Origin: Eledone cirrhosa
Lineage: Eukaryota
Reading direction: 5' to 3'
Length of the DNA stretch: 64,000 bases
NCBI GenBank assembly: GCA_964016885.1
Contig: OZ024743.1
Location: 314,092,001-314,156,000 of the forward strand
Shown here piece by piece: positions 6,396 through 63,876 of this stretch. The translations under genes were made by a program, and so were the position numbers. The first letter of the stretch is position 1. Each line of letters begins with the position of its first letter. The notes under the pieces were generated by a model. The model did not search any database. It saw only the letters and a program-made list of their open reading frames with translations, and was not told where the DNA came from.

Positions 6396-6765
6396 TTAGG
6401 GGGTTTGAGGGCGAGGTAAGTCTAACGCAATCTGTGTTTGCATGCAGTTACCAGTTCGTCTTTTTTGTTTAGGAGTTGATCCTTCGTAAAACATCATTTG
6501 TAATGTTTCCTCCGAGCATAAGTTACACGGACGGCGTCCTTCCGTGGAAGAGTTAGGTCCGGACAGTAAGCTCCAAGTAAGATTGTGAGATATATTATTA
6601 ACTTGGAGGTCCCAGATGTGGCCCGAAAGTGTAGTGGCATGTCGCCGGACCGGGTTTCGGAACGTATGTCGGTGTTGGTTGAGCCGGGTCTTCAAGTCCC
6701 AATCGGTTAATACTAAATAAGCTTTCTTAGAGGTGTCCGTCCTCACGTTGCACTGGTAGATCACG

Positions 6766-6767
<2 letters not shown>
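6396..6767 (-). pseudogene. PLE GIY-YIG endonuclease remnant
   Basis: VIYQCNV...AYLVLT..DLKTRLNQHRHTF...TTLSGHIWDL...LTW...CNLCSEE. Confidence 0.85.
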
Positions 6768-6804
<37 letters not shown>

Positions 6805-6878
6805 CTTAACAATAGTTATACACACACACGCACACACACACGCACACACACACATACACACACATATATATGTATCTA

Positions 6879-7950
<1,072 letters not shown>

Positions 7951-9781: not shown

Positions 9782-11400
9782 AGAGAAAACACAGGTAAGC
9801 ATTAAAAAAAGAATTTATCCAGGTATTTACGACCGTTTCATTGGTAAGTGCAACCTTATATTGCTATACTGCAAATAGCAGCCACTCAATAATAATTGTT
9901 GTTCACAGATTTAACACCTCTATTAGTACTAACCTACTGTCTACCTTCTTTAGAATAATAAATAAGCACTTTCCAGATTCACATAGATACAGCAAAATCC
10001 TTAACACTAAATCTATTAGACTATCTTACTCCACTGCACCAAACATAGAGGCACACATCAAGATGCTTAACGCTAATAAGATACTTAACAACACCGGAAC
10101 ACAAATTTATAACAATAACAATACAATTACCATTGAACACAACATAATATCTAATACACAACCACCCACTAATAGGCAAACAAGACGTAACACACTTGTA
10201 CAGGCATAGCAGCACACCAATAATGCCAAAGTTGCCCATGACAAGAATTGTAATTGCCACTTTCCTGAAACTTATCCATTACATAATGAATATATGCAGT
10301 CTAACCTGGTTTACCAATGCACAGTGGAATCAGACAACCAGAAATGGTATTACATCGGAGCGACTGAGAATACATTTAAAGTTCGTTGGTATACACACAG
10401 TTACGCAATGAAACATTCCCAGCATCGTTATGTAACTACCCTTGCAAACAAGACCTGGCAACTGAGGGAAAGTAACCATCAATACACCCTGAAGTGGAGA
10501 ACATTATCGAACGCGCCCCCATATCGGAGTAGTATGAGAAGCTGTCGGTTATGTGACCTTGAGTTGTTCCACATTTTGAGTTCGAAGAATATGTTACTCA
10601 ACAATAAAATCGAAAGATCAATTTATTGTAACCATAGACTCAAAGAAAAGTTTTCACACTACAAGTGCAAATCGAACCCTTAACCTCTTACTACCACCTG
10701 ACAAACTGCATATACTTAGACTTTCTACCCTCTTATTGTATCTAACCCCTTTAATTACCCACAAAAACCATCCTTCCCTCCTCCTTCATTCCTTTTCTAT
10801 TTCTTTCCATTTTTTTCCTTTCTTCTCTCCCTTTTTTGCTATCTTTTCTTTTCTTCTTTCTCTCCCCCCGCCTTCTTTATTTCTATTTTTATTTTATTTT
10901 TATATATATATTTATCTCTCTACCCGCCTCTCCATCCCTCCCACTATAAACAATTTAATTTTCTTTAAATCCCAACACTGTAAATCGACGACATGAAGCC
11001 TACCAATCAAAACTGATCGAGGAATCCTTCCACCTCTACCCATTCCTCCATCTCAGTTTGTCACTCTATTTCCTAATTCTTCTACCCCTTTCTCTCTCTC
11101 TATACTACTCTGTTTGTCAATTCACTTTCTAATTTCTCTTCCTCTCTCTCTATACTAGTAAATACAATTCCCAAAAAATGTTTTTTCTATATATTCAGAA
11201 CTTTTTAAGAGTAACTTATTCACTATTTTTAAAATTTAGACGTGAACAACAATTATTATTGAGTGGTTGCTATTTGCAGTATAGCAATATAAGGTTGCTG
11301 TTACCAATGAAACGGTCGTAAATACCTGGATAAAATACTTTTTTTAATGCTTACCTGTGTTTTCTCTTTTATCCTTTATACTCCAAGATTGAACGTGATT
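9779..11400 (+). mobile_element. PLE remnant with 5' inverted copy (about 125 bp) of its 3' end, in (TA)n
   Basis: 9783-9906 is the reverse complement of 11242-11367. Endonuclease-coding core lies between. (TA)n on both sides. Confidence 0.85.
9909..10683 (+). pseudogene. PLE thumb + GIY-YIG endonuclease, one in-frame stop (10207-10209)
   Basis: FNTSISTNL...KHFPDSHRYSKILN..SIRLSYS; NCNC; NLVYQC...YYIGATENTFKVRWYTH...CRLCDLE...CNHR. Confidence 0.9.
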
Positions 11401-17270: not shown

Positions 17271-17748
17271 AAATAAAGTTAAATAAAAGTCAAATGATTA
17301 AAATTTAGCTTCGTTTATTACTGCTATATATATTTCAGTGACAGCCATTATTTGCTGTGACCTCTTCAGGCAGTTTGAATTAGTATAGTATAGACAAGTA
17401 CATATGTTGTTTAGGTGTATAATATTGTCAATACTCTGATAAGCCCAGTTCCTTGTTGGGTTGTTAATTCACTGAGGAACTGTCAGAGTATTGACAATAT
17501 TATACACCTAAACAACATATGTACTTGTCTATACCATACTAATTCAAACTGCCTGAAGAGGTCACAGCCAATGATGGCTGTCAATGAAATATATATAGCA
17601 GTAATAAACGAAGCTAAATTTTAATCATTTGACTTTTATTTAACTTTATTTTACACTACTCCGGAGTAACCAAACCAACCTGCGCACTTCGTCGAGTGCT
17701 CCAGCCTGCATACTGAGGTGTTGGTATACAACTAACATAAACTCAAAA
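17271..17748. mobile_element. Fold-back insertion (about 170-bp arms) with an HHR in each arm
   Basis: 17271-17439 is the reverse complement of 17483-17651. (TA)n on both flanks. Confidence 0.85.
17548..17602 (+). ncRNA. Type I hammerhead with palindromic stem III (minus copy at 17320-17374)
   Basis: ACTGC-CTGAAGA-ggtc ACAGCC aatgat GGCTGT caat-GAAA-TATATA-TA-GCAGT. Confidence 0.8.
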
Positions 17749-19147: not shown

Positions 19148-19879
19148 TATTTGTTTATTGAAAAAAGCCAACAAAGATTTAATATAATAGGTCTGTTTGG
19201 GAACAGGTTTTGAATTGACCAATAGAAAAGTAGTAAGTGGTCAAGTTGATAGAATAGTAGTAGTAGAAATTTAATTTAGAGGTAGAGGAATGCTGACTTC
19301 AGTTTTGAATGGAAAGACTATATTGAATGAAAGGATTACTTTGGGGATGAAAAGAGGTCAAGCTGGTGAAACGTACACGAACATTTGATGTTAATAAAGA
19401 CTAATGCTAATGTTAAAATCAAAGGAGAATAACATTCTAGGGTAAATGAGTTAGTGAGAAATATCAATCTTATGTAAAATACAAGGAATTTAGATATATA
19501 ACAAAAAATTTAATTAATTTAATTGAGAGGTATACTTATAGGGATAAATTCATATTTATTCATATAGATGTGATAAATAAGAGTTAGATGTTATTAAAGA
19601 ATGTTGTTAAAAACGAAGGGAAACATTTTTTAGGATAAATGTATTAGTGAGAAATAACAAACTTATATAGACTACAAGGAATTTAGATTCATAACAGGAA
19701 ATTAAAATAGTTTATATGTATACTTATAGGTACTGATTTTATGAAAAAATAGCTGTAAAAGGGAAATAAAATTATGAAGCTCTCAGTAGTAAAATACTAA
19801 TTATAGGTTAACTAAATTAAAAAAAATAATTATAATAATTTGTAAAGTATAAGTGTAAGGTGTATATTAATTAGGTTTA

Positions 19880-20798
19880 TAATAAACAAAATTCCTAATA
19901 ATCAGACTAAAACACCTCAATCAGTTAATCTAACTAAACCTATATATAATAAATTCACTAATACTAACTCTCTTAGTAAACATCCTGATACATCGTATAA
20001 ATATAAAAAACAACATCGAAGCCGTAATAGACGAGTTACTTGGTATAATGCTCCATTTAATCTACAAATTAAAGATAATATCCCTAAAAAAACATTTACT
20101 ATCCTAGAGAAAAACTTCCCGCCAAACCATAAATACCATCACATTTTAAATAGATCAACGGTTAAATTTACCTACTCGACTACCAAAAATATACAACAAA
20201 ATATAAGTGCCTACAATGCATATAAATGTAAAAAAAAACATGAATATACCACCAAACTAACCATAATACTAAAATATACTGCAACAAACCACCATCTCCT
20301 TCACATATAGTAAGTCGAGTAAGTTCCACACCAAATTTGACTAACTCCCCTGATATAATATTCACGAACGGTTGTAACTGTAGAAACAAAGGAAATTGCC
20401 CATTAAAAGGAAATTGTCTCATTAATAACATAGTATATAAATGTAAGATTAGCACTAAGGACTCAACTTATTCTTATATAGGAGCTACTTCTACCCAATT
20501 TAAAGTAAGATTTAATACCCACAAACATAGTTTTTAAAATGCCGCATTAGCTAATACAACATCATTGGCTGAAATAATTAATAATTATAGAAAAAAGAAT
20601 ATCGATTATAACCTGACCTGGAGTGTGCTGAAAAGGGCCACCCATAATCAAAATAGCAGACATGAGTGTAGATTATGTTCCCAGGAACTTTTTGAAATAA
20701 TGAAATCTAAGGATATCCTATTAAATAAGCGACAAGAATTAATTATATCGTGCAATCATAGAATTAGAAGAACTTTCAAATATTATAAACCTAATTAA
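19880..20798 (+). pseudogene. PLE thumb + GIY-YIG endonuclease (frameshift and a stop)
   Basis: RVTWYNAPFN...KNFPPNHKYHHILNRSTVKFTYS; GCNCRNKGNCPLKGNC..NNIVYKC...YIGATSTQFKVRFNTH; CRLCSQE...CNHR. Confidence 0.9.
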
Positions 20799-21484: not shown

Positions 21485-21844
21485 CGGTAGAGGGTCGGAC
21501 GCCATGCTTTGAAGCATAGAATTACGTCCCTTTATAATCTGAGTTCAAATCCCGCCGAGGTTAACTTTGCCTTTCATCCTTACGGGGTCGATAAAATAAA
21601 GTACCAGTAATGCACTGGGTATTTGCTGGCCTTGTGCCCAAAATAGAAACGATTATTTCTGAGTGGATTGGCAGTATCGGTAGAGGGTCGGACGCCATGC
21701 TTTGATGCATAGAGTTACGGCCCTTGCCATTTTGGGTTCAAATCCCGCCAAGGTTAACTTTGCCTTTCATCCTTACGGGGTCGATAAAATAAAGTACCAG
21801 TAACACACTGGGTAATTGCAGGCCTTGTGCCAAACGTAGAAACA
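21485..21844 (+). mobile_element. Two tandem tRNA-derived SINEs inserted in the PLE arm
   Basis: A-box tggcagtatcgg and B-box gttcaaatccc. attatttct(g) recurs at 21475, 21652 and 21845. Both SINEs are absent from the opposite arm. Confidence 0.9.
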
Positions 21845-22155
21845 ATTATTTCTCGAGACAGCATATATATTTGTAGGTATGTATATTTCCCCTGATAGTT
21901 TGTAACACTTTTACATAGATCTATATGATATACATACCAACACACACATATATCCTAGAGACGATCGTAAAAGGATGAATTTTTTAATATAAGGAACTGT
22001 TTCTTTGTTTTTATTCATTGTTTTTATTAATTTATCTTGACTGTTTTCCTGTGATTTTCATCGAAAAAAGTTTTGAATACATCTTCTCTTTTCATGATAT
22101 TTGGATTACATTGAGTTCTTCATACGGATTGGACACTACCGTATATTTTGGTAGA

Positions 22156-22230: not shown

Positions 22231-24860
22231 CATCTTCATCATCACCGTTTTAGGTCCGTTCTTCCACGCTAGAATGGGTTAGACGGGTTGTCCTGTTGTG
22301 GGCAGTGTCTGGTCGGCTGACCTTATCTGGCTTATACAGGAATTGATTCTGGCTTAATTTCTACAGCTGGATGCCCTTCCTAACACCAACCTCATTTACA
22401 GTGAGTGCTGGGTGATTTTTTTCCGTGGCGCCTACACGTCCACTTTACAGTGTGGGCTGGGTGCTTTTTTGCCGTGGCACCTCCAAGACCACTTTGCAGT
22501 GGGAGGGTGTAGGGGCATATTGTCTATATGCTTCAGCTTCGGCTTGTACCCGTGGGAGGTCGGGTACTCTGTATTTCTGCATGACGCCAGAGGTCACGGT
22601 CGTGTGTCATCGCCTTTGAAGTTGAAATAGGGTAAGGTCGGCTTTTATCGCCTCATCCCAGGTCTTCTTGGGTCTCCCCACTCCGCGGTTTCCATTGACT
22701 TCTAGTGCTCTGCACCTTTTTATGCAGCTGTCATCCTTCATACGCATCACATATCCATACCAACGCAAACGCCTCTCCTGCACACAGCATTTGATTCCTC
22801 TTATGCTCAATCTCTTTCTCAATTCATTTATGCTTTGCCGTTCGCGTATATTACTATTACACATCCATCGGAGCATGCAGGCTTCGTTTCTTTCTAATCT
22901 ACATGGCTTGTACAGCTTTCACAAGCCATTCATCTACTCCTAGTTTTCTAAGAGCCCGCCAGAGTATAGCACATGGAACTCTGTCAAAGGCTTTCTCGAG
23001 ATCGACGAATGCCAGGTAGAGTGGCTTACGTTTAGCTAGGTACTTTTCCTGTAACTGCCTCACCAGGAAGAGGGAATCAGTGGTGCCTCTTCCTGGTACA
23101 AACCCAAATTGCATCTCATCTAGTTTCACCCGGTCCCTAATCAACTGTGCTATAACTTTTTCTGTTACTTTCATGACCTGGTCCATCAGCATTATACCTC
23201 TATAGTTTCCTCTATCTAGTGCATCACCTTTACCTTTGTAGCAGTTGAAAATGATGCTACTGCACCAATCCTTTGGTATGACACCTTCTAATATTACCTG
23301 GTTAACAATACGTGCGGTTATAGTGTAACCTACCGACCCAGATGCCTTCAGCATCTCAGCAGCTATACCTGATGGACCGGTTGCCTTCCCCATCTTCATA
23401 TCTTTGATTTTTTTACTTACTACGCTGCTGCTGACTTGCACTGCTGGCCCCTCTATAGGGTCTACTTGGGGTAGGGTCTCTTCTTCCCATGCATTCTCCT
23501 CATATAATAATCTATCATAATGGCTCTTCCATGCATCTTTCTTCTCAGCAATTGTGAGGGCAAGCTCACCTTTATCATTCCGGATACACTTCTCTCCAAT
23601 GACATCACAATTCTCTCTGATACACTGCCTCGCAATCTTGAACACCTCCTGTTTCTGGTCCTCACGTTGCAAACCATGCTTGAATTTTCTATCCTCTGCT
23701 TCCCTCCTAGCTAAGTATACTTGTCGCCTAGCTTGCCTCCTGATCTCTATGTAATGTACCCTGCTTCCCCCGTTCTTCCATTCTTTCCATGCCTGTCTCT
23801 TGGCCTCAACTGCCTCATCTACCTTATTGTTCCACCACCAAGTCATTCTCCTCCTGCCCGTGGTCTTACTCCAGCCACAGATCTCATCCGTCGCCTCTAG
23901 TAAGTTATTTTTTAGGAATTCCCAGTGCTCTTCTACATTGAATGTCTCTATCTGTTCTTCTTTACTGTCGTAGGTGTTGATTAAAATATCTTTAAATCTA
24001 TTACTGGCTGAGGGGTCTTTCAGCTTCCAGATATTTCTTCTCCAGGTTGGCCTCTGTTTCCAGGTTCGTCTAGTTCTGACCGTGAGGTCGCTGACAACTA
24101 AGCTATGTTGGGAGGTACATTCCTCACTAGGGAAAGCTGTTGTGTTTACGACCGGCCATCTGTCACGTCCTCTGATGAGGATAAAATCTCTCTGACTAGA
24201 ATGCTCCTCTGATCTATATTTGATTAGGTGGTTGTCGGGTTTTTGGAACCCCATGGCCTCCATGGACTCTATTGAAGCCGTCACATTGTTTACCTACATG
24301 TCCGTTAAAATCTCCTGCACTGATTAGGAAGTCATTGTCGTTTATTAGAGCAGTAGTGTGCATTAGTGACTCGTAAAACCTATCTTTAAGTTCGTCTGGC
24401 AACCCCGATTGGGGTGCGTAAGCTGATATTATTGTGGTAATTGTTTTATTCAGGACTAGTCTGAGTTTAATGATTCTTGCATTCACCCTGTTCACTGAGA
24501 TTACTTTATCTACCCACTTGTCAGCTAGTAGAATACCTACACCACCCATCGCATCGTCATTTCCCACCCAGAAAAATTTGTAGCACTGGAGTTTTCCTAC
24601 AAGGACTCTAGCAGACTCTCCTCTCCAGCTAGTCTCTTGCACACAGCATACATCAATTTCCTTTCGCTCTAGCATCTCTACGATTTGTCCTGCTCTTCCT
24701 TTCATTGTGCTTACATTGATGGTACCAACTCGGAGTTTTGGGCATTTGTTAACATTCGTGGGGAAGGATCGATTTTTGCAGGGTGTGCGTGTGCTTCCTG
24801 TCTCTGAATTGAAGCTTCACATGGGTGCTTGGTAGAACGCGGATTCATATTCATTTTCAT
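22229..24860 (-). mobile_element. RTE-clade LINE (APE endonuclease + RT), frameshifted, RT core internally deleted
   Basis: DVCCVQET, ISAYAPQ, GDFNGHVG (24214-24705); YKGKGD..DRGNYRGI, QFGFVPGRGTTD, FVDLEKAFDRV (22899-24284); C-terminal RRLRWYG...GRPKKTW (22607-22876); (GAT)n-like tail near 22229-22244. Confidence 0.93.
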
Positions 24861-36703: not shown

Positions 36704-37226
36704 GAGAACATTCCGGATTAAAGAAATAACCTCAGAACCAAATGAAGAAACCAAAATAAGACAAAATCTACCACTCCAAGAAACTTGAGATAGAAATCAC
36801 TCTACTCCGTCTAAGAATGCCAAAATTTAAAGAAAAATTCGAAAAATAAGACACCACCATTAGAGAAGAATTAAACAAAAGAAGCATCGGTAATGTACTA
36901 GAAGAACTCTTTGACCTTTGGAAGAATGATACAACCAGAGAAGAATTGAAATCAAAGAAAATCTTGGAGTCAAGAACACAATAGCTACAAGAATATGAAA
37001 AAAACTATGGCAAAGTCCAAATAAAATCCAAAAAAACAAATCCATAAGAAACCCTCAAATTCGGGAATAACACAAGAAATGAAGAATTCTCACACAATAA
37101 ACACGCATCAACCAGAATCGGAGAATCCCAAACACACAATTATACACAAACCAAATACCGAACACCAGAACCAGATACAACTATCAAATCTCCAACAACA
37201 ATTACCAGCGGCAAAATCAAAGACAT

Positions 37227-38351
37227 ATGATGACCGAACGGAATAACAGAAATAGACACCCGTATATCAACCACCAAACAAAATACTACCGCTCAGAAAA
37301 TGATCAACATGAAATGCCGGCAAACAGAATATTTCACCACAACAGAAACACCGCTACCTCAAATGGGAATTATTTTTTAGAACAAGGTGCCTCCCACCAA
37401 ATGAAAGGAAAAAAGGAAACAAACACCACCCTTCAAGTGGCACCCGACGAGAAAACTCCAAAGGAACTAAAAATAATCAACATATCGGCCAAAAAACTAA
37501 CAACAGGAAATAAAATTGCTAGAAAATGGACTGAAATTCACACCCAATCCAAAGCAGATCAAGCCGACCTTATAAAAGACACAGAAGATTTTTGTCAAAA
37601 ATTATGTCTAGGAGAATTCTTCCAAAGTGTAGAATGCGAGGGGGAATCACTAGTGAGCGACAAAAAGAACTTCAGACCTCCATTAAATAGAGACAAACAC
37701 CTGGAGGATTACATAATCTGCCTCCGACGATCGGCACAGTCAAATACTGCAGAGACAAAACACAAACACAACATCCCTACAGACCAAATGCAAACACTAA
37801 ACAAACTACAAAAATACTCCTCAATAATCATAAAAGAAGCGGACAAAGGTGGAGCAATCATCATCATGATTGACAAGGATATGGTCCTACAACAGTTGAA
37901 TAACGAGGATCTTTACAGAAAAATCAGCCAAAACGAAGAAAGAAAATCGATGATTAAAGTAGGTAAGCTGACGACCAAGTACCAAGACAACCTCACACTA
38001 AAGGATATCAATTACTTAACCAACTTCGAAATGAAAATCAGAAACATCTAAGGTTTAACGAAGGTTCACAAATCCAGAGAAATACAAAACAACATAAAAG
38101 GCAAAAATATATCATATGTTGAAGTACCAAAACCGACAGATTTAAAATTACGTCCAATTGTTGCTGGTCCAGCCTCAAGCACACAACGTCTAAGCAACCT
38201 ATTAGACATCGTACTGAAATCCTTATGTAAAAAAGTGCCAAGCTTCATAAGAGATGATATGGAATTCCTGAACTATATCCCCCAGAAAGTACACCAAGAA
38301 ACAATCTTAGTCAGCTTTGACGTAACAAGCTTATATACTAACATCCCACAT
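37227..38351 (+). pseudogene. PLE reverse transcriptase N-terminal half (disrupted, truncated after motif A)
   Basis: IIIKEADKGGAIIIM; GLTKVHK...LRPIVAGPASSTQRLSNLLDIVL...FIRDDMEFL...LVSFDVTSLYTNIPH. Confidence 0.88.
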
Positions 38352-38640
38352 CATTCTATTATACATCGATGTGGACTGCTATTTCTAATATCCCACTTTT
38401 CACCTCTTAATAATTTGTGTGTGAAACACGCTGGCTGTGAGTGCTTTTGACGGGAACGAAAAGATTGGTTTTCTATTCTCCCGCCTCCACGTAAAATTAG
38501 TAAATCGGTGGCTAGTCGAGAGAGTCGTATCGGGTGCCAGTTGCTAATCGCTTTACCGTGTCGGTTGTCACAAACAGTCATGACCGGCATGGGTAGGGGG
38601 TTTGGATTCTGTCGATCGATTGGCTATTTATTAGGCTATA

Positions 38641-39770: not shown

Positions 39771-39774
<4 letters not shown>

Positions 39775-39982
39775 TTAATATAGATGAGATTCTACAGGAC
39801 TAGAACTGTTTCATTCTTTAGAAATCATCAGGAATCCTGTTTTACGTGGGATTCCTGATGATTTCTAATGATTGAAACAGTTCTAGTCCTGTAGAATCTC
39901 ATCTATATTAAAACTTTTATACTCTGCTATGTATTGAGTACCTTACTTACTGTGGTTACCTCCGATTTAACCCGGAATAACT
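39771..39982. mobile_element. Fold-back insertion with two divergent hammerheads
   Basis: 39771-39837 is the reverse complement of 39849-39915. (TA)n flanks. Confidence 0.85.
39849..39899 (+). ncRNA. Type I hammerhead (minus copies at 39787-39837 and 54045-54090)
   Basis: GGATTC-CTGATGA-[12 nt]-GAAA-CAG ttctagtc CTG-TA-GAATCT. Stem II (ttc taaa gaa) is intact in the minus copies. Confidence 0.85.
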
Positions 39983-40096: not shown

Positions 40097-40596
40097 TGTG
40101 TGTGCGTATATGTGTGTGTGAGTGTATGCTTTAATTCTTTCAAATCTTCATCAACACTCATTAACACGACACCCCACACCCAGACACATCCAAATCTTTC
40201 TTATATATACATATATATAGTCACACCTCACAACATAACCTGATCTCAGTTTGACAATCACCACCGACGAATGCGAGAAAGTTCTCCAACAAAGTTAACC
40301 AGGAATCTTTAAATTCTTCCCACCGAGTTAACAAAGAACTTACTAGATCTACCAACTCATAACATTAGAATATTATAAAATTAAATCAAATTATTTAACA
40401 CTACAAGTGAAGTCATTCTTTTCCTTTTTTTTTCAAATATACCTAACTGTACCAAGGATCTCACACATTTTCCAATATATACTGTATATATACATATGTA
40501 ATTATGCATACGTACACACATATATAGACACACACACACACATATATATCTATACATATACATATGTAAGCATGGGTTATATCGATCATTAATAAT

Positions 40597-40814
40597 GCGT
40601 TCTTCTATAGGCACAAGGCCAGCAATTTGGAAGCTGGGGAAAGTCGAATAAATCGATCCCAGTGTGTGACTGGTGTTTTATTTTACCGACTCCGTAAGGA
40701 TGAAAGGCAAAGTTAACGTCGGCGGAATTTGAACTCAGATCATAAAGGGCTATAACTCTATGCTGCAAAGCATGGCGTCCGACTGTCTCCCGATACTGCC
40801 AATCCACCGCCCTA
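40597..40814 (-). mobile_element. Full-length tRNA-derived SINE with TSD
   Basis: TSD tatcgatcat(t/c)aataat at about 40580 and 40815. A and B boxes on the minus strand. Confidence 0.88.
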
Positions 40815-41200: not shown

Positions 41201-41235
<35 letters not shown>

Positions 41236-41255
41236 CACACACATATATATATATA

Positions 41256-41336
<81 letters not shown>

Positions 41337-42116
41337 ATGAATGTATATATAGTGCATTTGGTAATACACTGTATGCTTAATTAAAAGCATTTTGATGACC
41401 TTACGCTATTGTTTTAAAGTAGTGACTATGTCACTTCCTTTTTCAACAAACAAAGGGAGATAAGCACTCCCTTCGATTGTTGAAAATTATGAATGTTGGA
41501 TTCTTATAGAATTCCAGTAATAATCAGGAACTGATTATACAGACCGGTTGCCGAACCAGCAAACATTGAAAAGTATAACTTGTGCTCTGAAATAGCGATG
41601 TATGTATGAATGTATATATAGTGTATTTGGTAATACACTGTACGCTTAATTAAAATCATTTTAAAGACCTTACGCTATTGTTTTAAAGTAGTGACTTACT
41701 TCTTTTTTCAACAAACAAAGGGAGATAAGCTGACAGATCTCTGTTTCATACTGTTGGCATTCCTCAGAGCTTATCACTCCCTTTGCTTGTTGAAAACTAT
41801 GAATGTTGGATTCTCATATAATTCCAGTAATAATCAGGAACTGATTATACAGAGCGGTTGCCGGTCCAGCAAAAACTGAAAATTAGAATTGGTGCTCTGA
41901 AATAGCGATATATATATATATGAATGTATATATAGTGTATTTGGTAATACACTGTATGCTTAATTAAAAACATTTTGAAGACCTTTCGCTATTGTTTTAA
42001 AGTAGTGACTATGTCACTTACTTCTTTTTTTCAACAAACAAAGGTAGATAAGCTGACAGATCTCTGTTTCATACTGTTGGTATTCCTCAGAACTATTTTA
42101 AAACAATAGCGTAAGG
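41337..42116 (-). mobile_element. Retrozyme-like tandem array (about 320-bp unit, about 2.5 copies)
   Basis: Units start at 41337, 41606 and 41920. HHR in units 2 and 3. Short inverted segment at 42097-42116. Abuts (TA)n. Confidence 0.85.
41724..41775 (-). ncRNA. Canonical type I hammerhead
   Basis: GATAAGCT-CTGAGGA-ATGC caaca GTAT-GAAA-CAGA ga TCTG-TC-AGCTTATC, with stem I extended past a bulge. Confidence 0.92.
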
Positions 42117-44239
42117 GATTGGTAAAGTGGAGGGTATGGTAGAAGATATTTGGGCAATGTGCTATGGCACTGTGGGAACTGAACCAGAAAATACGTGGGT
42201 GTGAAGCGAATTCTTTAACTGCACAGTCATGTCAACGATCATGTATCTATTTTTCCAAACATCTAAGTAAAGTGTGACCTGAAACTTTACTTCGATATTA
42301 ACAAAACTGACGTCAATACATCAATAGTTTTGTGGTTATAAGGCATGTTCATAGTAACAGATAGATCACAATTTCATGTGTTAATTATTTGCAATTAAGA
42401 CTGATACATCAACGTTTCTGCATCTATTATTTTCGATATAATTATATTTAACGTAAGATTCCTCGGAGGAATTGATTTAGAAATACATTTTTCTCTTACT
42501 TTATTAATTACTTTAAAATGCTGATTAAGTATGTAAATTTCTAGCTTGCTGTATAGTAACTGCTATAGCACAGGCGTACTGCATCCTTAATTATATATAC
42601 ATATACACCCTAAAAACACAAACATACATACACATACATTCACACACATACACACAAAAACCTATATATAGAGGAAAACAGGTAAAGAAATTTAGATATA
42701 CTAAAATATTCCAGTGATATAATGTAAATTAGATCTCTCACGCTGCAACACTTTCAGATCATACATGTGAACATCATATACTCAATGACCAGTTATATGA
42801 AATCCTAAATTTAACATTCTAAATTATTTTCTAAAGACATGGATCGGAGAATCTCCTCACCGTTATCTCTAAGGAATCTTAATGTTTGAATTTGTTATTT
42901 TTATATCATTCATTTTGCTATTTCAACTTGTTATACATTTATTTATGTTTCTTCTAATCAATAACTTCCGTGATGTTTGTCTTACACCTTTAAATCATTT
43001 TGGCGTCAGTTGGAGCTGTAGAAACGGTGTTTAAGATAAGACCTTGTAACATACATTTTCTTTTCCTTTTGTGTATTTTTACAGACTTTGATTATGTATC
43101 AGATTTCTGCTTTCTGTGCGGGTTGGATCAAATGACAATCTATGATATAATATAATTCAGTCGGCTATTGTGAGTGAAGTCTCGAAAATTTGGCGCTGCT
43201 ACAAATAATATCATTGCTCATGTTTGGTTAGAATAACTTAGAAAACAAATGTGCATGTATTTGTTAATATAAATACATGCACGTCATTATTGTAGTACTT
43301 CATATTTCATACCTAACTACACTAATTTGCAAACTATACATCTATCAATATAAATATGGTTTCAATTTATACGATTAAGTCTTTCCAATGGAAGCTATAT
43401 TTTAAAATTTCTTCAGACATTTGACGAATACGTTAAAATCTTCTTGAGTAACTTTTAATCAGTTAGGTAGGTTGTAAGTATTTGGACTAAAGAAGAAGTA
43501 ATCTCCCGCTAAAATATTATTTGTTTGATCTAGAGTATGGAGGAAGATATGCAATGTAGCCTCATCCCAAACTATACAGCTGCTATTGCCCTATTTTATT
43601 GGACAAGGCAGGTTCTTAAATTAGAGAGGGTATATATATAAGTTGTAAAGCTTGTTTCATTTCCGGGGTCATAGATAGAATAAAAGAAAATTACTGGACC
43701 CAGTCTCTTACTATAGAACATAATATGGAGTGAATCTGTAATTCAAAGGTCCAGCTTTCTCACACATTGTATAACGCTGATTGATTTGACTAAAGAATTA
43801 CGTTAATGGTACACACGTTAGCACAATTCTCAACCAATTACATGTCATTTTACGTGTTACACGTTTGGCTGATCGGAGAATTGAGGGCTCAATGTCGGAA
43901 ACGTCACCGGTTCTATCACAATTCATCGGCAAATAGAAGAGAAATAACACACTAATATCTTATTAAAGGGAAGATTATACTAGATAATGTAAATCTAGAT
44001 AGTACTAAAACACACTATGCTCACAGCTGGGTCAGTTTTCAATTATACATAAATACTAAAGAGGTACAGAGTTCGATTCTCTGTAGTGGCACCTGGCCGT
44101 GTTATCAGTCTATGAAGGTATTTTACCCGAGCTTCTTAGCTCTGTTCACATCTAATTTCCTGCGTTCGAGATTTTCTATATTCCTGAAATATTTCACCTC
44201 ACTCGACGTATCAATTTCTATTTTATATATATATATATA

Positions 44240-53891: not shown

Positions 53892-54202
53892 AACAAGTAG
53901 GACCCCGACGGCTGAGCTCAAGCCATCGGGGTCCTACTTGTTCCTATTACCCACTCTACTACCCTAAGTATTGTGTACTTCGGTGCGTTATGGTCCATCT
54001 GGTTCCTTATGACATTTCCTTCGTTATATATATATATAGATGATATTCTACAGGACTAGAACTATTTCATTCTTTAGAAATCATCAGGATTCCTATTAAG
54101 GACTCATCAAGGCAAGTAAAGCTATAAGGAGCACTATCGGCCAATACAAGCCAAAAAACTAGTAAGAAAAGCCTTGACCTTATTATATCAGCCGTTGGGG
54201 AA

Positions 54203-55828
54203 ATGGTTAATTTTAACCTATGGGGGAACACTAAGGAAGTTATAGATTGGTTCTCTGGGATTAATAAACTTGAATCTAATAAGTTTATCCAGTTCGATAT
54301 TGATGCCTACTACACATCGATTTCACCCATCCTCCTCAATAAAGCCTTAATGTTGGCTATGAGAGTGTCCAGCCTTACACGATCACAGGTAGATGTTATA
54401 CTAGCAGCCCGTAGAACTATCATTAATTTTGAGGACACATTTTGGACCCGTAAAAACACGCCCAACAATTTCGACGTTACAATTGTTTCGAATGATTCAG
54501 CCCAGGTAACTGATCTTGTTGGGTTGTTCCTCCTAAATGAACTATATGTTACCTTTCCGCACCTTAAAGGCGGACTATATCGTGATGATGCATTGTTTGT
54601 GATTAACTCTAGCACCAACAATGTCGAGCATAATAAGAAGAAGCTTTATAAGTTTTTTAAAAGCTATAACCTTTCGATCACGATAGATAGAAACGATAGA
54701 GCGGTCAACTTTTTAGATGTGACTTTGGACTTGGTGACTAATAGTTTTAAACCCTTCCATAAGCCTAATGAAATACTCTCTTATGTTAGTCCCAATTCTA
54801 ACCACCCCAAATCTATGATAAGCTCTATAATTAATGGTGTATCTAATAGAATTTCCACACTCTCTAAGGACATAGGAATATTTAATGCACATGCAGAGTA
54901 CTATAATAATTCCCTAGCTAACTCCGGTTACTCTGGTAAAATACATTATAATAATAGTAACCTTAGAAAGTCTCCGCTTACATATAATAATAATAACATA
55001 ATATCCCATAATATGGCCATGAATGGGAGTAGAAAGCATAAGAATCGTATAAATCCCATAGGTGTATCCGAACCCATCCATAAGTTAAGCCACCGGATTC
55101 GTAATAGGGAATCTAATAGTTCTAGGGATCAAGTTGGGCACTCTGAGCGCTCACTCAGTGGTAATGCTTTTGCTAAATCTAATGTTTTTACTAATTCTAA
55201 TAGTGTTGTTTCTACTGATCCTATTAGTAGCCCTAATCCTATTGATATGATTCCAGATAGCAGTAGATATACTAAAGGTAGAAACAGAAGGAGACTCAAT
55301 GGGGTTTCGGCTGATTCTAATAATGTGGTTTCAACTAGTCCTCGTAGTAACCCAGATCTTAATAATGGGATATTAGATAACGGTAGAGTTGGTAAGGATA
55401 GAAATAGAAGGAGACTAAATACTTATTTTAACCCGCCATATGATCAGGAAGTATTAACTAACATCCATAGGTCTTTCTTTTCTATCTTAGAGAAAAATGT
55501 CCCTCCTACTAATAAATACCATGGTATTTTTAATAAAAATGTAATTAAACTATCATTCTCTACCACCCCTAATATTAGTTCTCATTTAGCTAGCACTAAC
55601 AATAGGAAAATTAGGGACCGCTACTCCTCTTTGCGTAATACTAGTCTGGATAGATCCATAAATGCCTTACCACCTGAGCAGACCTTATCTCATAGTAACA
55701 CTACGAGTGATGCATCACTACTTCAGCCGATCAATAGCACCCGGAATTGTAACTGTAGAGTGAGTGTTAACTGCCCTTTAAACGGTAACTGCCTCTCTAG
55801 GGGACATTGTTTATGCTTGTGTAGTTAA
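54203..55828 (+). CDS. PLE reverse transcriptase core + thumb + Zn-linker (partial, probably pseudogenic)
   Basis: FIQFDIDAYYTSI, FDVTIVSNDSAQVTDLVG, GLYRDD, VNFLDVTLDL, SNHP, YFNPPY, CNCRVSVNCPLNGNC. Confidence 0.9.
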   Translation: MVNFNLWGNTKEVIDWFSGINKLESNKFIQFDIDAYYTSISPILLNKALMLAMRVSSLTRSQVDVILAARRTIINFEDTFWTRKNTPNNFDVTIVSNDSAQVTDLVGLFLLNELYVTFPHLKGGLYRDDALFVINSSTNNVEHNKKKLYKFFKSYNLSITIDRNDRAVNFLDVTLDLVTNSFKPFHKPNEILSYVSPNSNHPKSMISSIINGVSNRISTLSKDIGIFNAHAEYYNNSLANSGYSGKIHYNNSNLRKSPLTYNNNNIISHNMAMNGSRKHKNRINPIGVSEPIHKLSHRIRNRESNSSRDQVGHSERSLSGNAFAKSNVFTNSNSVVSTDPISSPNPIDMIPDSSRYTKGRNRRRLNGVSADSNNVVSTSPRSNPDLNNGILDNGRVGKDRNRRRLNTYFNPPYDQEVLTNIHRSFFSILEKNVPPTNKYHGIFNKNVIKLSFSTTPNISSHLASTNNRKIRDRYSSLRNTSLDRSINALPPEQTLSHSNTTSDASLLQPINSTRNCNCRVSVNCPLNGNCLSRGHCLCLCS

Positions 55829-57988: not shown

Positions 57989-58136
57989 TAATAAAGACTG
58001 TTGATGTATTGAAGGCTTCTTTGGTTTATTTTCATAATTCTTCGGCTCTGTTTAATTTACATTGAGCTATATATTTACTGTCATTTCTATAATATGAAGA
58101 GGGTGTTTAACTCCAACACACTCTAGTATTTTAATT

Positions 58137-58179
<43 letters not shown>

Positions 58180-58182
<3 letters not shown>

Positions 58183-58494
58183 TTCCTCTGCACCTCCTCC
58201 AATCTCGTCTATGGATTTCGCTGCACGGAGTGCAGCACAACCTACGTCGGACAGACCGGACTTCGCCTGGCGGATCGATTCACGGAGTACCTCCCAGATA
58301 TTCTTCTCGGTGGGAGTTCCCCCATCGCCCACAACTTTGGTTCCCCTGGACACTCCGCCCATCACTTCACCGTCTGTGGCAGGATCCAATGCCATGGAAC
58401 CCCCGCAACACACCTCACGGTAGGGCAACACACCCTTTTCACCCTACAAACCCACCCACCCCCTGACCTGAACTACCCAACACTCTTCCTTTAG
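58180..58494 (+). pseudogene. GIY-YIG endonuclease of a different PLE lineage, open frame without ATG
   Basis: FLCTSSNLVYGFRCTECSTTYVGQTGLRLADRFTEYL...PIAHNF..PGHS...LFTLQTHPPPDLN. Followed by a C-rich UTR to about 59810. (TA)n on both sides. Confidence 0.85.
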
Positions 58495-59827: not shown

Positions 59828-61242
59828 GTAATAATAATAAATTTGAAAGACTAAAATCCAAAGAGAGCTCGATAAGGAAAAATATATATCAAATATATAA
59901 GAACCGTAGGGCAAATATTTATTAAAATAACACATTAAAGTTTAAGCAAAAATCGCTCCTTCACCCTTAACGGGATCTTCTGAAAGTAAAAAAAATCAAT
60001 CTGTGAACGCAGAAGTAAATATTTCGAAAAACATTGCAACCGACGTCTACGCCTCCTCACCTTGCACATAACACCATTACTGCAAATTTAGCTAAATTAC
60101 CTAGCCATAGGAACACGTGCAACCCTGTAGCTAGTATTAACTGTAATTGTAGGAATCGGGTTGACTGCCCTCTATCCGGGAAATGCCTCTCCAGTAACAT
60201 TGTCTACAAATGTAAGGTCGAAACGCCCACGTCCCGTAGGGCCTACATAGGGTTAACCGCCAATAGATTCAAGCACCGTCTTTACATGCACACGCATTCT
60301 TTTTTTAACCCTTTAAGAAGGAATATGACGTCACTTTCAGCTCATATCTGGAGTCTAAAAGACAACCACACCCAATAAAACATTCCTGTATTACAGCCCC
60401 ACATTATACCCTAACGGATAGTACGAACAATACGCGGATAATTTACGTCTTGATGTGGTAGCTAAGTATATTTTATGTTTATAAAGAACGCATTTTTATA
60501 CCATTACTTATTTGTATAGATAAGTATACATTACTCGTATGTTTTGTGAAGGTACGTATATTTTCTGGTACGTATATTTGCTTGTATTTGTTATAGGTGT
60601 ATATATTATATTATATATAATGGTACAGGTGTATAATGTTATTTGTATATGTGTATTTTGTGTTTGCATGTGTATGCGTCTTTGAACGTATGTAAGGTGT
60701 GTATATGTATACTTTGTGTTTTGGTTGATGTAGGTTTAGTGAACATATGTGTATTTACCTCTAGGTATGTGTGTGTGTGCGTTATTTACGTATTTATGCT
60801 TGTATATTTATATACATTTATATAATTATATGCGTGCATGCGTGTATGTATATATTTAATTATTGTTGATTTCAATAACCTCGGTCATTTACGTTCTACT
60901 AATTTATTTAGATTATTCTTAACTTTGAAGCCGAGAATCATTCGGTTTCCTAAATAGAATATTAATCTACGACTTCATTTATACCATAAACGTGGTTTTG
61001 TCTTTAGGTGTAATTGTTATCTTTGGTCCACATTATGACGTATTATCTTCACTTTTTTCCGTTCAATGCCAGAGCAAGTCTTTCGCGAACCAAAGTATCA
61101 TCTTCCTGTCTTGCTTCGGTTGCAACGTTTTTCGAAATATTTACTTCTGCGTTCACAGATTGATTTTATAAGTTTCAGAAGATCCCATTAAGGCTGAAAG
61201 CAGCGATTCTTTGCTTAAACTTTAATCTGTTATTTTTATAAA
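59828..61242 (+). mobile_element. PLE remnant: 5' inverted arm, GIY-YIG fragment (60040-60378), 3' UTR, HHR
   Basis: About 59915-60042 is the reverse complement of 61117-61243. NCNCRNRVDCPLSGKC..NIVYKC...AYIGLTANRFKHRLYMH...SLSAHIWSLK. Fold-back fragment of the same family at 63652-63880. Confidence 0.87.
61170..61222 (+). ncRNA. Hammerhead-like fold with CAGAAGA (U4A) core
   Basis: AAGTTT-CAGAAGA-tCCC attaa GGCt-GAAA-GCAG cgattct TTGC-TT-AAACTT, plus distal stem acagattga/ttaatctgt. Minus copies at 59938-59985 and 63674-63726. Confidence 0.7.
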
Positions 61243-62687: not shown

Positions 62688-62960
62688 CACACATATATAT
62701 ATGTACGTATGGATTCACCGAACATTTATTATAATGCTCGGTGTGTTTGTATATATATGTATGTACGTGTACATACTTATATTTAAGTAACAGCCGTACT
62801 AAGAGTGAGAAATGAAATTTCGTTTCATTTTTTCCGTTTATCGTTTTCGGTACCCCGGCCGATTAACTCACTCGATATGCAAATTAGGCTGCTCAGCCGT
62901 TAATATGCATAAGGAAAGTATATACTTTCAGACGTTCAACCATCTGGCAGGAAGGTATAC

Positions 62961-62999
62961 GTTGCTGACGATAGCCAATAAGCTTGAAACTAGTACAGC
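62961..62999 (+). ncRNA. Type I hammerhead (second copy at 63386-63428)
   Basis: GTTG-CTGACGA-tAGC caataa GCTt-GAAA-CTAG-TA-CAGC. Confidence 0.88.
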
Positions 63000-63876
63000 A
63001 TTCTTTTGTCAGTGTTGAACAAATGACCAACGATGGTTGCTAGACACTGTACGGCTTAATTCGGGATGTTTGTTTACAAACACACCGAGCATTATAATAA
63101 ATGTTCGGTGAATCCATACGTACATATTTATATGTGTGCATGTATGTATATATATACATACTACTGTACATCTGTATACATATATGTATCTACGTATCCA
63201 TACTTATATTTAAGTAACAGCCGTACTAAGAGTGAGAAATGAAATTTCGTTTCATTTTTTCCGTTTATCGTTTTCGGTACCCCGGCCGATTAACTCACTC
63301 GATATGCAAATTAGGCTGCTCAGCCGTTAATATGATTAAGGAAAGTATATACTTTCAGACGTTCAACCATCTGGCAGGAAGGTATACGTTGCTGACGATA
63401 GCTAATAAGCTTGAAACAAGTACAGCGTTCTTTTGTCAGTGTTGAACAAATGAGCAACGATGGTTGCTAGACACTGTACGGCTTAATTCGGGATGTTTGT
63501 TTACAAACACACCGAGCATTATAATAAATGTTCGGTGAATCCATACGTACATATATATATGTGTGCATGTATGTATATATATATACATATACATACTACT
63601 GTACGTCTGTATACATATATGTATGTACGTATACATACTTATATATATACATATTTATTAAAATAACAGATTAAAGGTAAAGCAATGAATAGCTGCTTTC
63701 ACCCTTAACGGGATCTTCTGAAACTTAAAAAAATCAATCTGTGAACGCAGAACCGATTTTTGCTTAAACTTTAATCTGTTATTTTAATAAATATCTGATT
63801 TACGATTTTTATATATTTGATATATATTTATCCTTATCGAGCCCTCTTTGGATTTTAGTCTTCAAATTTATTATTA

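Follow-up and report, generated by a model that had tools for sequence, protein, structure and literature searches.

The stretch of DNA analysed here (the window, 64,000 nucleotides) is AT-rich, microsatellite-rich animal DNA full of retroelement remains, and it contains a short partial tandem array whose units carry a hammerhead ribozyme (HHR) in minus-strand sense (Table 1). Read along that strand, the array opens with an inverted cap (42116-42092) and 37 nt of ribozyme core up to a cut site at 42055/42054, and passes through a 323-nt monomer to a further cut site at 41732/41731. From there 266 nt lead to the place of a third ribozyme, where 45 nt are missing (41465/41466), and the last 129 nt reach a (TA)65 microsatellite across five unmatched bases (41332-41336). 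The preliminary description of this locus, made from the sequence alone, had given a repeat of about 320 bp, and the unit boundaries and the distance from cleavage site to cleavage site agree with it. The array was not reported by TRF. No target-site duplication was found, the longest word common to both flanks being 5 nt, and the right flank has neither a TA run nor a match elsewhere within the 64-kb window.

Table 1. Coordinates of the hammerhead array, its parts and the Penelope-like pieces of the window
Feature	Position	Strand	Remarks
Array, 780-bp partial tandem, about 2.4 (two-and-a-half) units	41337-42116	-	minus-strand sense
Unit 1, ribozyme-less, 45 nt missing, outer helix I hairpin retained	41337..41604	-	window sequence
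Unit 2, full length, 315 bp	41605..41919	-	variable (TA) tract at end, ~41908-41921
Unit 3, 5'-truncated at catalytic core edge	41920..42091	-	core 42090-42055 intact; native 5' helix I arm missing
Inverted cap, 25 bp, array 5' end	42092..42116	+	copy of unit sequence in 41668-41692 register
(TA)n microsatellite, array 3' end in RNA sense	41201..41331	.	TRF period 2, 65.5 copies; likely priming/target site
Deletion junction 41465/41466	41463..41466	-	3-nt microhomology (AGC) given family letter at 41774
Sole complete type I hammerhead	41705..41796	-	core 41767-41732; predicted cut between 41732 and 41731
Predicted monomer, 323 nt, cut site to cut site	41732..42054	-	33% GC
PLE-like RT/GIY-YIG ORF pieces, broken	54128-55828, 9799-10683, 37101-38450, 58135-58494, 60019-60378, 90-596, 19846-20310		motifs by eye

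A canonical HHR had been placed on the minus strand at 41724-41775, and its helix I, core and helices II-III were indeed located there, with all 12 invariant core bases correct in units 2 and 3 (C3, U4, G5, A6, G8, A9, G12, A13 and A14, the pair A15.1-U16.1 and H17). The architecture is that of a type I hammerhead, with three helices and helix I open; in unit 2, an internal loop separates the 6 bp of helix I from a 20-bp extension, helix II has 4 bp (loop CAACA) and helix III 4 bp (loop AGAU). The internal loop (UGC in the family) and the loop CAACA appear, in the predicted fold, to occupy the places expected for a loop 1-loop 2 contact, judged against loop letters that we take to be those of Sm-alpha. 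A strict HHR scan returned three matches in the window, two in the array and one at 17369, and none in any of 40 order-3 Markov copies, which rules out a chance motif. The Rfam hammerhead had no match in the window at gathering score and none among nine weak matches (E up to 10), a library match not being a defining feature of the type I hammerhead. The exact core pattern had no match in metagenome and viral contigs.

The ribozyme domain of unit 2 is more stable than its shuffles (z -7.4; 0/200), and the ribozyme fold is 1.0 kcal/mol less stable than the minimum, making up about 3% of the ensemble when tertiary contacts are left aside. As a circle, the 323-nt monomer is 63% paired and more stable than all 100 shuffles (z -5.7, part of which is contributed by the helix I hairpin); it has stops in all six frames. 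Helix III is stronger than in the newt motifs, so the ribozyme is likely, by prediction, to be able to fold as a monomer.

Only one of the three ribozyme sites of the array is complete, that of unit 2, because the cap replaces the helix I arm of unit 3 and unit 1 carries the deletion. Through the cap, the ribozyme of unit 3 gets only 4 helix I pairs, and base-pairing between the cap and the core of unit 3 is predicted in their stead. The picture of head-to-tail HHR units releasing monomers at this place therefore finds no support in that form, and the locus, having one complete ribozyme, would probably be a poor source of monomers. An inverted cap had been described and is present, but it measures 25 bp and not 20; it is identical at 24/25 positions to units 1 and 2 and at 23/25 to unit 3. 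A 590-nt contig of sequencing run X1, a run possibly related to the source of the assembly, spans 42062-42560 with 0 differences and crosses the cap junction, which is therefore real; an assembly artefact at the cap is thus ruled out.

Unit 1 has lost 45 nt and with them the core, as first claimed, but the loss is not exactly that of the core, as besides the core it takes helix I's 5' arm and one base beyond the cut site, with its 3' break 1-4 nt from that site. Since the missing segment lies between two AGC repeats (given the family letter), it is read as a microhomology jump and not as a clean excision; exact excision of the core by cleavage and religation was rejected, as the first base after the cut was also lost. 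The hairpin remaining in unit 1 has a z of -5.9 against shuffles. The deletion junction is known from the window sequence alone, lying outside the stretch compared with reads (41600-42560).

That stretch was compared at 80% likeness with four of nine listed sequencing runs (X1, X4, X5 and X7), and the family was present in all four; none of the nine is an RNA run, which has no bearing on expression. In X1, 4,719 contigs match, with a summed depth of 5,731-487,924 over 15 array bins vs 8.61 over most of the single-copy flank; summed depth is not a copy number, but at face value the core bins stand about 4,000 times and the commonest part about 70,000 times above the flank, a difference of three to four orders. 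The family is therefore not confined to a local tandem duplication, the situation that the preliminary description had named as fatal to its reading. Run X7, which consists of RAD reads under the same organism label as X1, gave 6,347 matching reads, 5,631 of them less than 95% alike, and 44 contigs came from X4 and 15 from X5, runs that bear two other organism labels. Among the 24 of 422 loose ends listed, those before 41601 match the closing part of a unit lying in front (416 reads in X7; X1 and X5 have them too), and among the 15 of 30 joints listed, joints going back 322 bases occur in other copies; other copies are therefore tandem too. Joints marked as running to the opposite strand were set aside, those at 41732/42029 and 41747/41985 resting on one contig each and two further ones being probably due to hairpin-arm mapping. 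Over the ribozyme hairpin the depth is 4- to 100-fold lower, and the loose ends there are variant arms that still have the cut-site letters (372 reads in X7). We read the dip, without proof, as subfamily divergence; it could alternatively mean that many copies have no ribozyme hairpin.

The reads also contain two 340-nt contigs (X4-11, depth 410, and X5-23, depth 365) that share a 66-bp match to 41835-41900 together with the letters in front of it, at offsets that differ (264 and 201), and whose letters recur in 1,512 X7 reads and at a depth of about 25,000 in X1. To judge by their letters, they are likely to represent one 310-nt unit in circular permutation, and so a sister family that is homogeneous and tandem (or circular). 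Each unit of the array further contains a small perfect hairpin (41620-41640 and equivalents), the 4-nt loop of which differs between two large subfamilies (41629, 41631), while its stem is unchanged among the variant rows listed.

Variation within the family keeps the structure of the ribozyme. Among the 40 of 128 variant rows listed, ten variants fall in 41705-41796, two in loops, eight in helices and none in the core, although a core free of variants would arise by chance about 1 time in 4 (12 core places, 10 variants in 92). All eight helix variants keep pairing, two of them only jointly with the listed partner change. At 41790/41711 an A-U pair becomes G-C, with shares of 0.26/0.26 in X1 and 0.61/0.61 in X7 (147/242 and 223/364). 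At 41760/41748 (pair 10.1-11.1) the same exchange has shares of 0.53/0.57 in X7 (174/331 and 218/383), whereas in X1 the two shares mismatch (0.03 vs 0.22). All these variants are unphased, and the 20-bp hairpin arms can homogenise as DNA without selection on the RNA. The equivalent part of unit 3 yielded four rows, two of which repeat unit 2 changes, one of which is a loop change and one of which restores a pair.

The units were also compared with the letters of the family. A change from G-U to A-U in stem II had been ascribed to unit 3; the difference exists, but A-U at 41758 is the family state (99% of X1 depth; 326/332 X7 reads) and the change is private to unit 2. At 41774 (T>G) the family letter likewise differs from unit 2 (96% of X1 depth; 169/332 X7 reads). 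The units compared agree with one another at six positions that are split in the family. Unit 2 or 3 deviates from the family at a further 13 positions; for 12 of these the family letter is found in another unit (at 41774, that unit fits it), and at 41786 units 1 and 2 both depart from it. Over 125 shared columns, private changes number 4, 2 and 2, one column differs in all units and no two units stand out as nearest to each other. Such letters fit the copying of one template followed by decay, and they would fit an old local duplication too.

In retrozymes, tandem transcripts self-cleave to monomers, which are ligated to circles. Self-cleavage and circularization of the transcripts are reported for coral, mussel and axolotl, with thousands of genomic copies (PMC7229834), and there the mobilizing enzyme is left open, with Penelope-like elements (PLEs) as a candidate (PMC7229834; PMC7761336); a 2026 preprint leaves the enzyme open as well, and both sources state as open whether the circles are the template (PMC7229834; bioRxiv 10.64898/2026.07.22.740005). 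The array consists of non-coding, head-to-tail units within the 150-450 bp range of non-LTR retrozymes, with a GC content under 45%, and it belongs to a multi-copy family. The retrozyme reading of the preliminary description thus stands as far as the type I HHR, the low-GC units of about 320 bp, the lack of an ORF and an abundant family with structure-keeping variation go, and we hold it very probable that the array family is a non-LTR retrozyme. Two consecutive complete ribozymes characterize an active locus (bioRxiv 10.64898/2026.07.22.740005); with its single complete HHR, this one is not an active copy by that definition. As a decayed copy, the array adds a new member to the known non-LTR retrozymes, probably the first retrozyme noted in an octopod. 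Our literature search found no paper on cephalopod retrozymes or their insertion junctions, although supplements may list octopod motifs.

The ends of the array resemble those of PLE insertions, which are described as partial tandems that are truncated at the 5' end and frequently bear an inverted 5' copy and a tail of 30-40 bp (bioRxiv 10.1101/2021.04.23.441226; PMC8557442). The same sources describe Naiads, which are ribozyme-less and have a (TA)n bias, and non-autonomous Chlamys elements, which form head-to-tail multimers. At this one locus a partial tandem, an inverted 5' piece and a microsatellite target are found together. The element has no RT and GIY-YIG ORF such as an autonomous PLE possesses, and no PLE with the array unit as its pseudo-LTR was found in the window and the reads examined. 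Broken PLE-like pieces do lie in the window (Table 1) and, by their motifs, would be candidates for the kind of partner enzyme; the RT piece at 54128-55828 has 30 homologues (E up to 1e-20), of which four bear an organism name, three Argonauta hians and one Octopus bimaculoides, so that an octopod host is likely. Pfam gave no PLE domain in 14 window ORFs and matched only the RT and endonuclease of one LINE, a fragment at 22899-24816 on the minus strand.

Other repeats of the window were recorded beside these. An inverted pair (17269-17439/17483-17653) with 171-nt arms, 98% complementary, lies beside a (TA)n run and has a PLE-type minimal hammerhead in each arm, with an unpaired G after A9, a long helix II, a 5-bp helix I and a UA-repeat helix III; judged by its letters, it would be a second ribozyme family, unrelated to the array. 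A minimal hammerhead-like motif at 7120-7175 (minus strand; G10.1-C11.1, 5-bp helix II) folds no better than shuffles, and its strand also has a GIY-YIG-like ORF piece (6396-6815) at a distance of about 350 bp. A 67-nt inverted repeat (39771-39915; 97% complementary, 11-nt spacer) adjoins a (TA)n run. Two tandem dimers, at 62753-63644 (427 bp, 95%) and 21485-21853 (193 bp, 89%), contain no hammerhead motif by strict scan, and the latter is built of a SINE-like repeat also found at 40592-40811.

Taken as a whole, the reading that we favour, at a probability of about 0.6, is that an abundant hammerhead repeat was inserted by a Penelope-type reverse transcriptase from one RNA template, likely a circle. 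With the unit's own TA tract as its priming site, the enzyme would have started at the (TA)n microsatellite and gone about 2.4 times round the template, beginning 129 nt downstream of the cut site, passing two ribozyme sites and halting at the 5' edge of the third core, where a short second-strand piece would have closed the end and given rise to the inversion. The 45-nt loss of unit 1 would be a one-off jump between the 3-nt repeats in helix I, while copying or later, and the units would then have drifted apart by private mutations. Internal priming is suggested because the 3' end of the array falls at the unit's TA tract, 129 nt from the cut site, and copying of a circle by a PLE enzyme is favoured because intact cut sites, with their stable helix III, would be easier to pass if the template was a ligated circle and not a linear multimer. 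Family abundance, tandem continuation, the pairing-keeping variants, the shared letters, the PLE-like ends, the PLE pieces and minimal HHRs of the window and the tie between retrozymes and PLE pseudo-LTRs reported in a 2026 preprint (bioRxiv 10.64898/2026.07.22.740005) argue for this mechanism, whereas the lack of a duplication and of a TA run on the right argues against a simple target-primed insertion. It may also be that the (TA)n microsatellite arose by expansion of the element's own end. The layout fits rolling-circle copying without proving it, because ribozyme-less PLEs show the same ends (PMC8557442), and the partial multimer, which had been offered as a sign of rolling-circle reverse transcription, is not diagnostic of it.

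A more specific account, which we regard as doubtful, is that this copy records the mechanism itself: a PLE reverse transcriptase would prime a retrozyme circle via its internal (UA)n at a genomic (TA)n and stumble at the ribozyme, either hopping across a cleaved nick held together by helix I (the 45-nt loss) or stopping at the core (the 5' inversion), with the 310-nt sister family as live source. That both rearrangements touch helix I suggests the ribozyme as the place where the enzyme stumbles, in two events only.

The same architecture could have come from a PLE pseudo-LTR remnant or a non-autonomous PLE copied from linear RNA, through template jumps or an uncleaved multimer and without any circle, which we consider unlikely. 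Ribozyme-less Naiad and non-autonomous Chlamys elements have this architecture (PMC8557442), retrozyme units match PLE pseudo-LTRs in Xenopus (bioRxiv 10.64898/2026.07.22.740005) and PLE pieces lie in the same window. However, the ribozyme is canonical, with a 6-bp helix I, 4-bp helices II and III and no unpaired base after A9, and not of the minimal kind described for PLEs (PMC4209133; PMC6155905), the monomer has no ORF, the loose ends listed (24 of 422) run into unit sequence and none is recognizable as an ORF, and no similarity of the unit to the PLE pieces of the window appears among the matches listed. The Xenopus study reports cleavage for only one of nine predicted dimers, the other eight not cleaving, and favours local amplification of a pseudo-LTR (bioRxiv 10.64898/2026.07.22.740005). 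In a quite improbable alternative, with which that last preference agrees, one monomer was inserted and then duplicated locally as a minisatellite by unequal crossover or slippage, the ribozyme being a passenger here. Shared subfamily letters with private divergence fit it equally well, but both ends have features like those of a retro-insertion, no two units are clearly closest and in a tandem the source of the cap is located some 230 nt upstream of the point of truncation, so that a longer-than-unit or a second template would be needed.

It is also conceivable, although we consider it the least probable of these accounts, that ribozyme-less units are a real sub-lineage, for example with longer circles of 266+323 nt or with escape from cleavage, and no accident. 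The position of the 3' break so close to the cut site and the low depth over the ribozyme hairpin would agree with this; yet among the 15 of 30 joints listed and the 11 indel rows there is no 45-nt skip, a 3-nt microhomology marks the junction, and the skips of 66 and 142 nt seen elsewhere, each in one contig, resemble ordinary decay. Its thousands of dispersed, partly truncated copies with readable ends make the family suited to a direct test of the link between PLEs and retrozymes, in that a connection with the PLE machinery would follow from priming at (TA)n, from 5' inversions and from breakpoints that cluster at the ribozyme, and, if the account of stumbling at the ribozyme is true, a genome-wide census of octopod junctions would be the first direct footprint of how retrozymes move. 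Retrozymes are already known from molluscs, so the element itself is unsurprising; it adds a circular-RNA candidate, likely of an octopod, with a ribozyme predicted to be competent as a monomer.

The array shares with the metazoan non-LTR retrozymes of PMC7229834 the type I HHR, tandem units of 150-450 bp, low GC, the lack of an ORF, copies by the thousand and a highly paired predicted monomer, and its 323 nt compare with units of 350-390 bp in the mussel. It differs from them in its own sequence, its likely octopod host and the 20-bp extension of helix I, and in combining one complete HHR of three with PLE-like ends, which the accessible text of that paper does not describe; circles have been shown for those retrozymes, whereas the array family is known here from DNA. 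With Sm-alpha of Schistosoma and newt satellite 2 it has in common a type I HHR in short repeats, with loop 1 internal and loop 2 short (PMC6155905), although its unit sequence is unrelated to both and its helix III is the stronger one in comparison with the newt. Xenopus retrozymes are reported to be relatives of PLE pseudo-LTRs (bioRxiv 10.64898/2026.07.22.740005). Unlike EN+ PLEs, the array has no RT or GIY-YIG ORF and its HHR is canonical, yet it resembles those elements and their pseudo-LTRs (PMC4209133; PMC8557442; bioRxiv 10.64898/2026.07.22.740005) in its partial tandem, its 5' truncation, its inverted 5' piece of tail length, the (TA)n at one end, the lack of a clear target-site duplication and its type I HHR.
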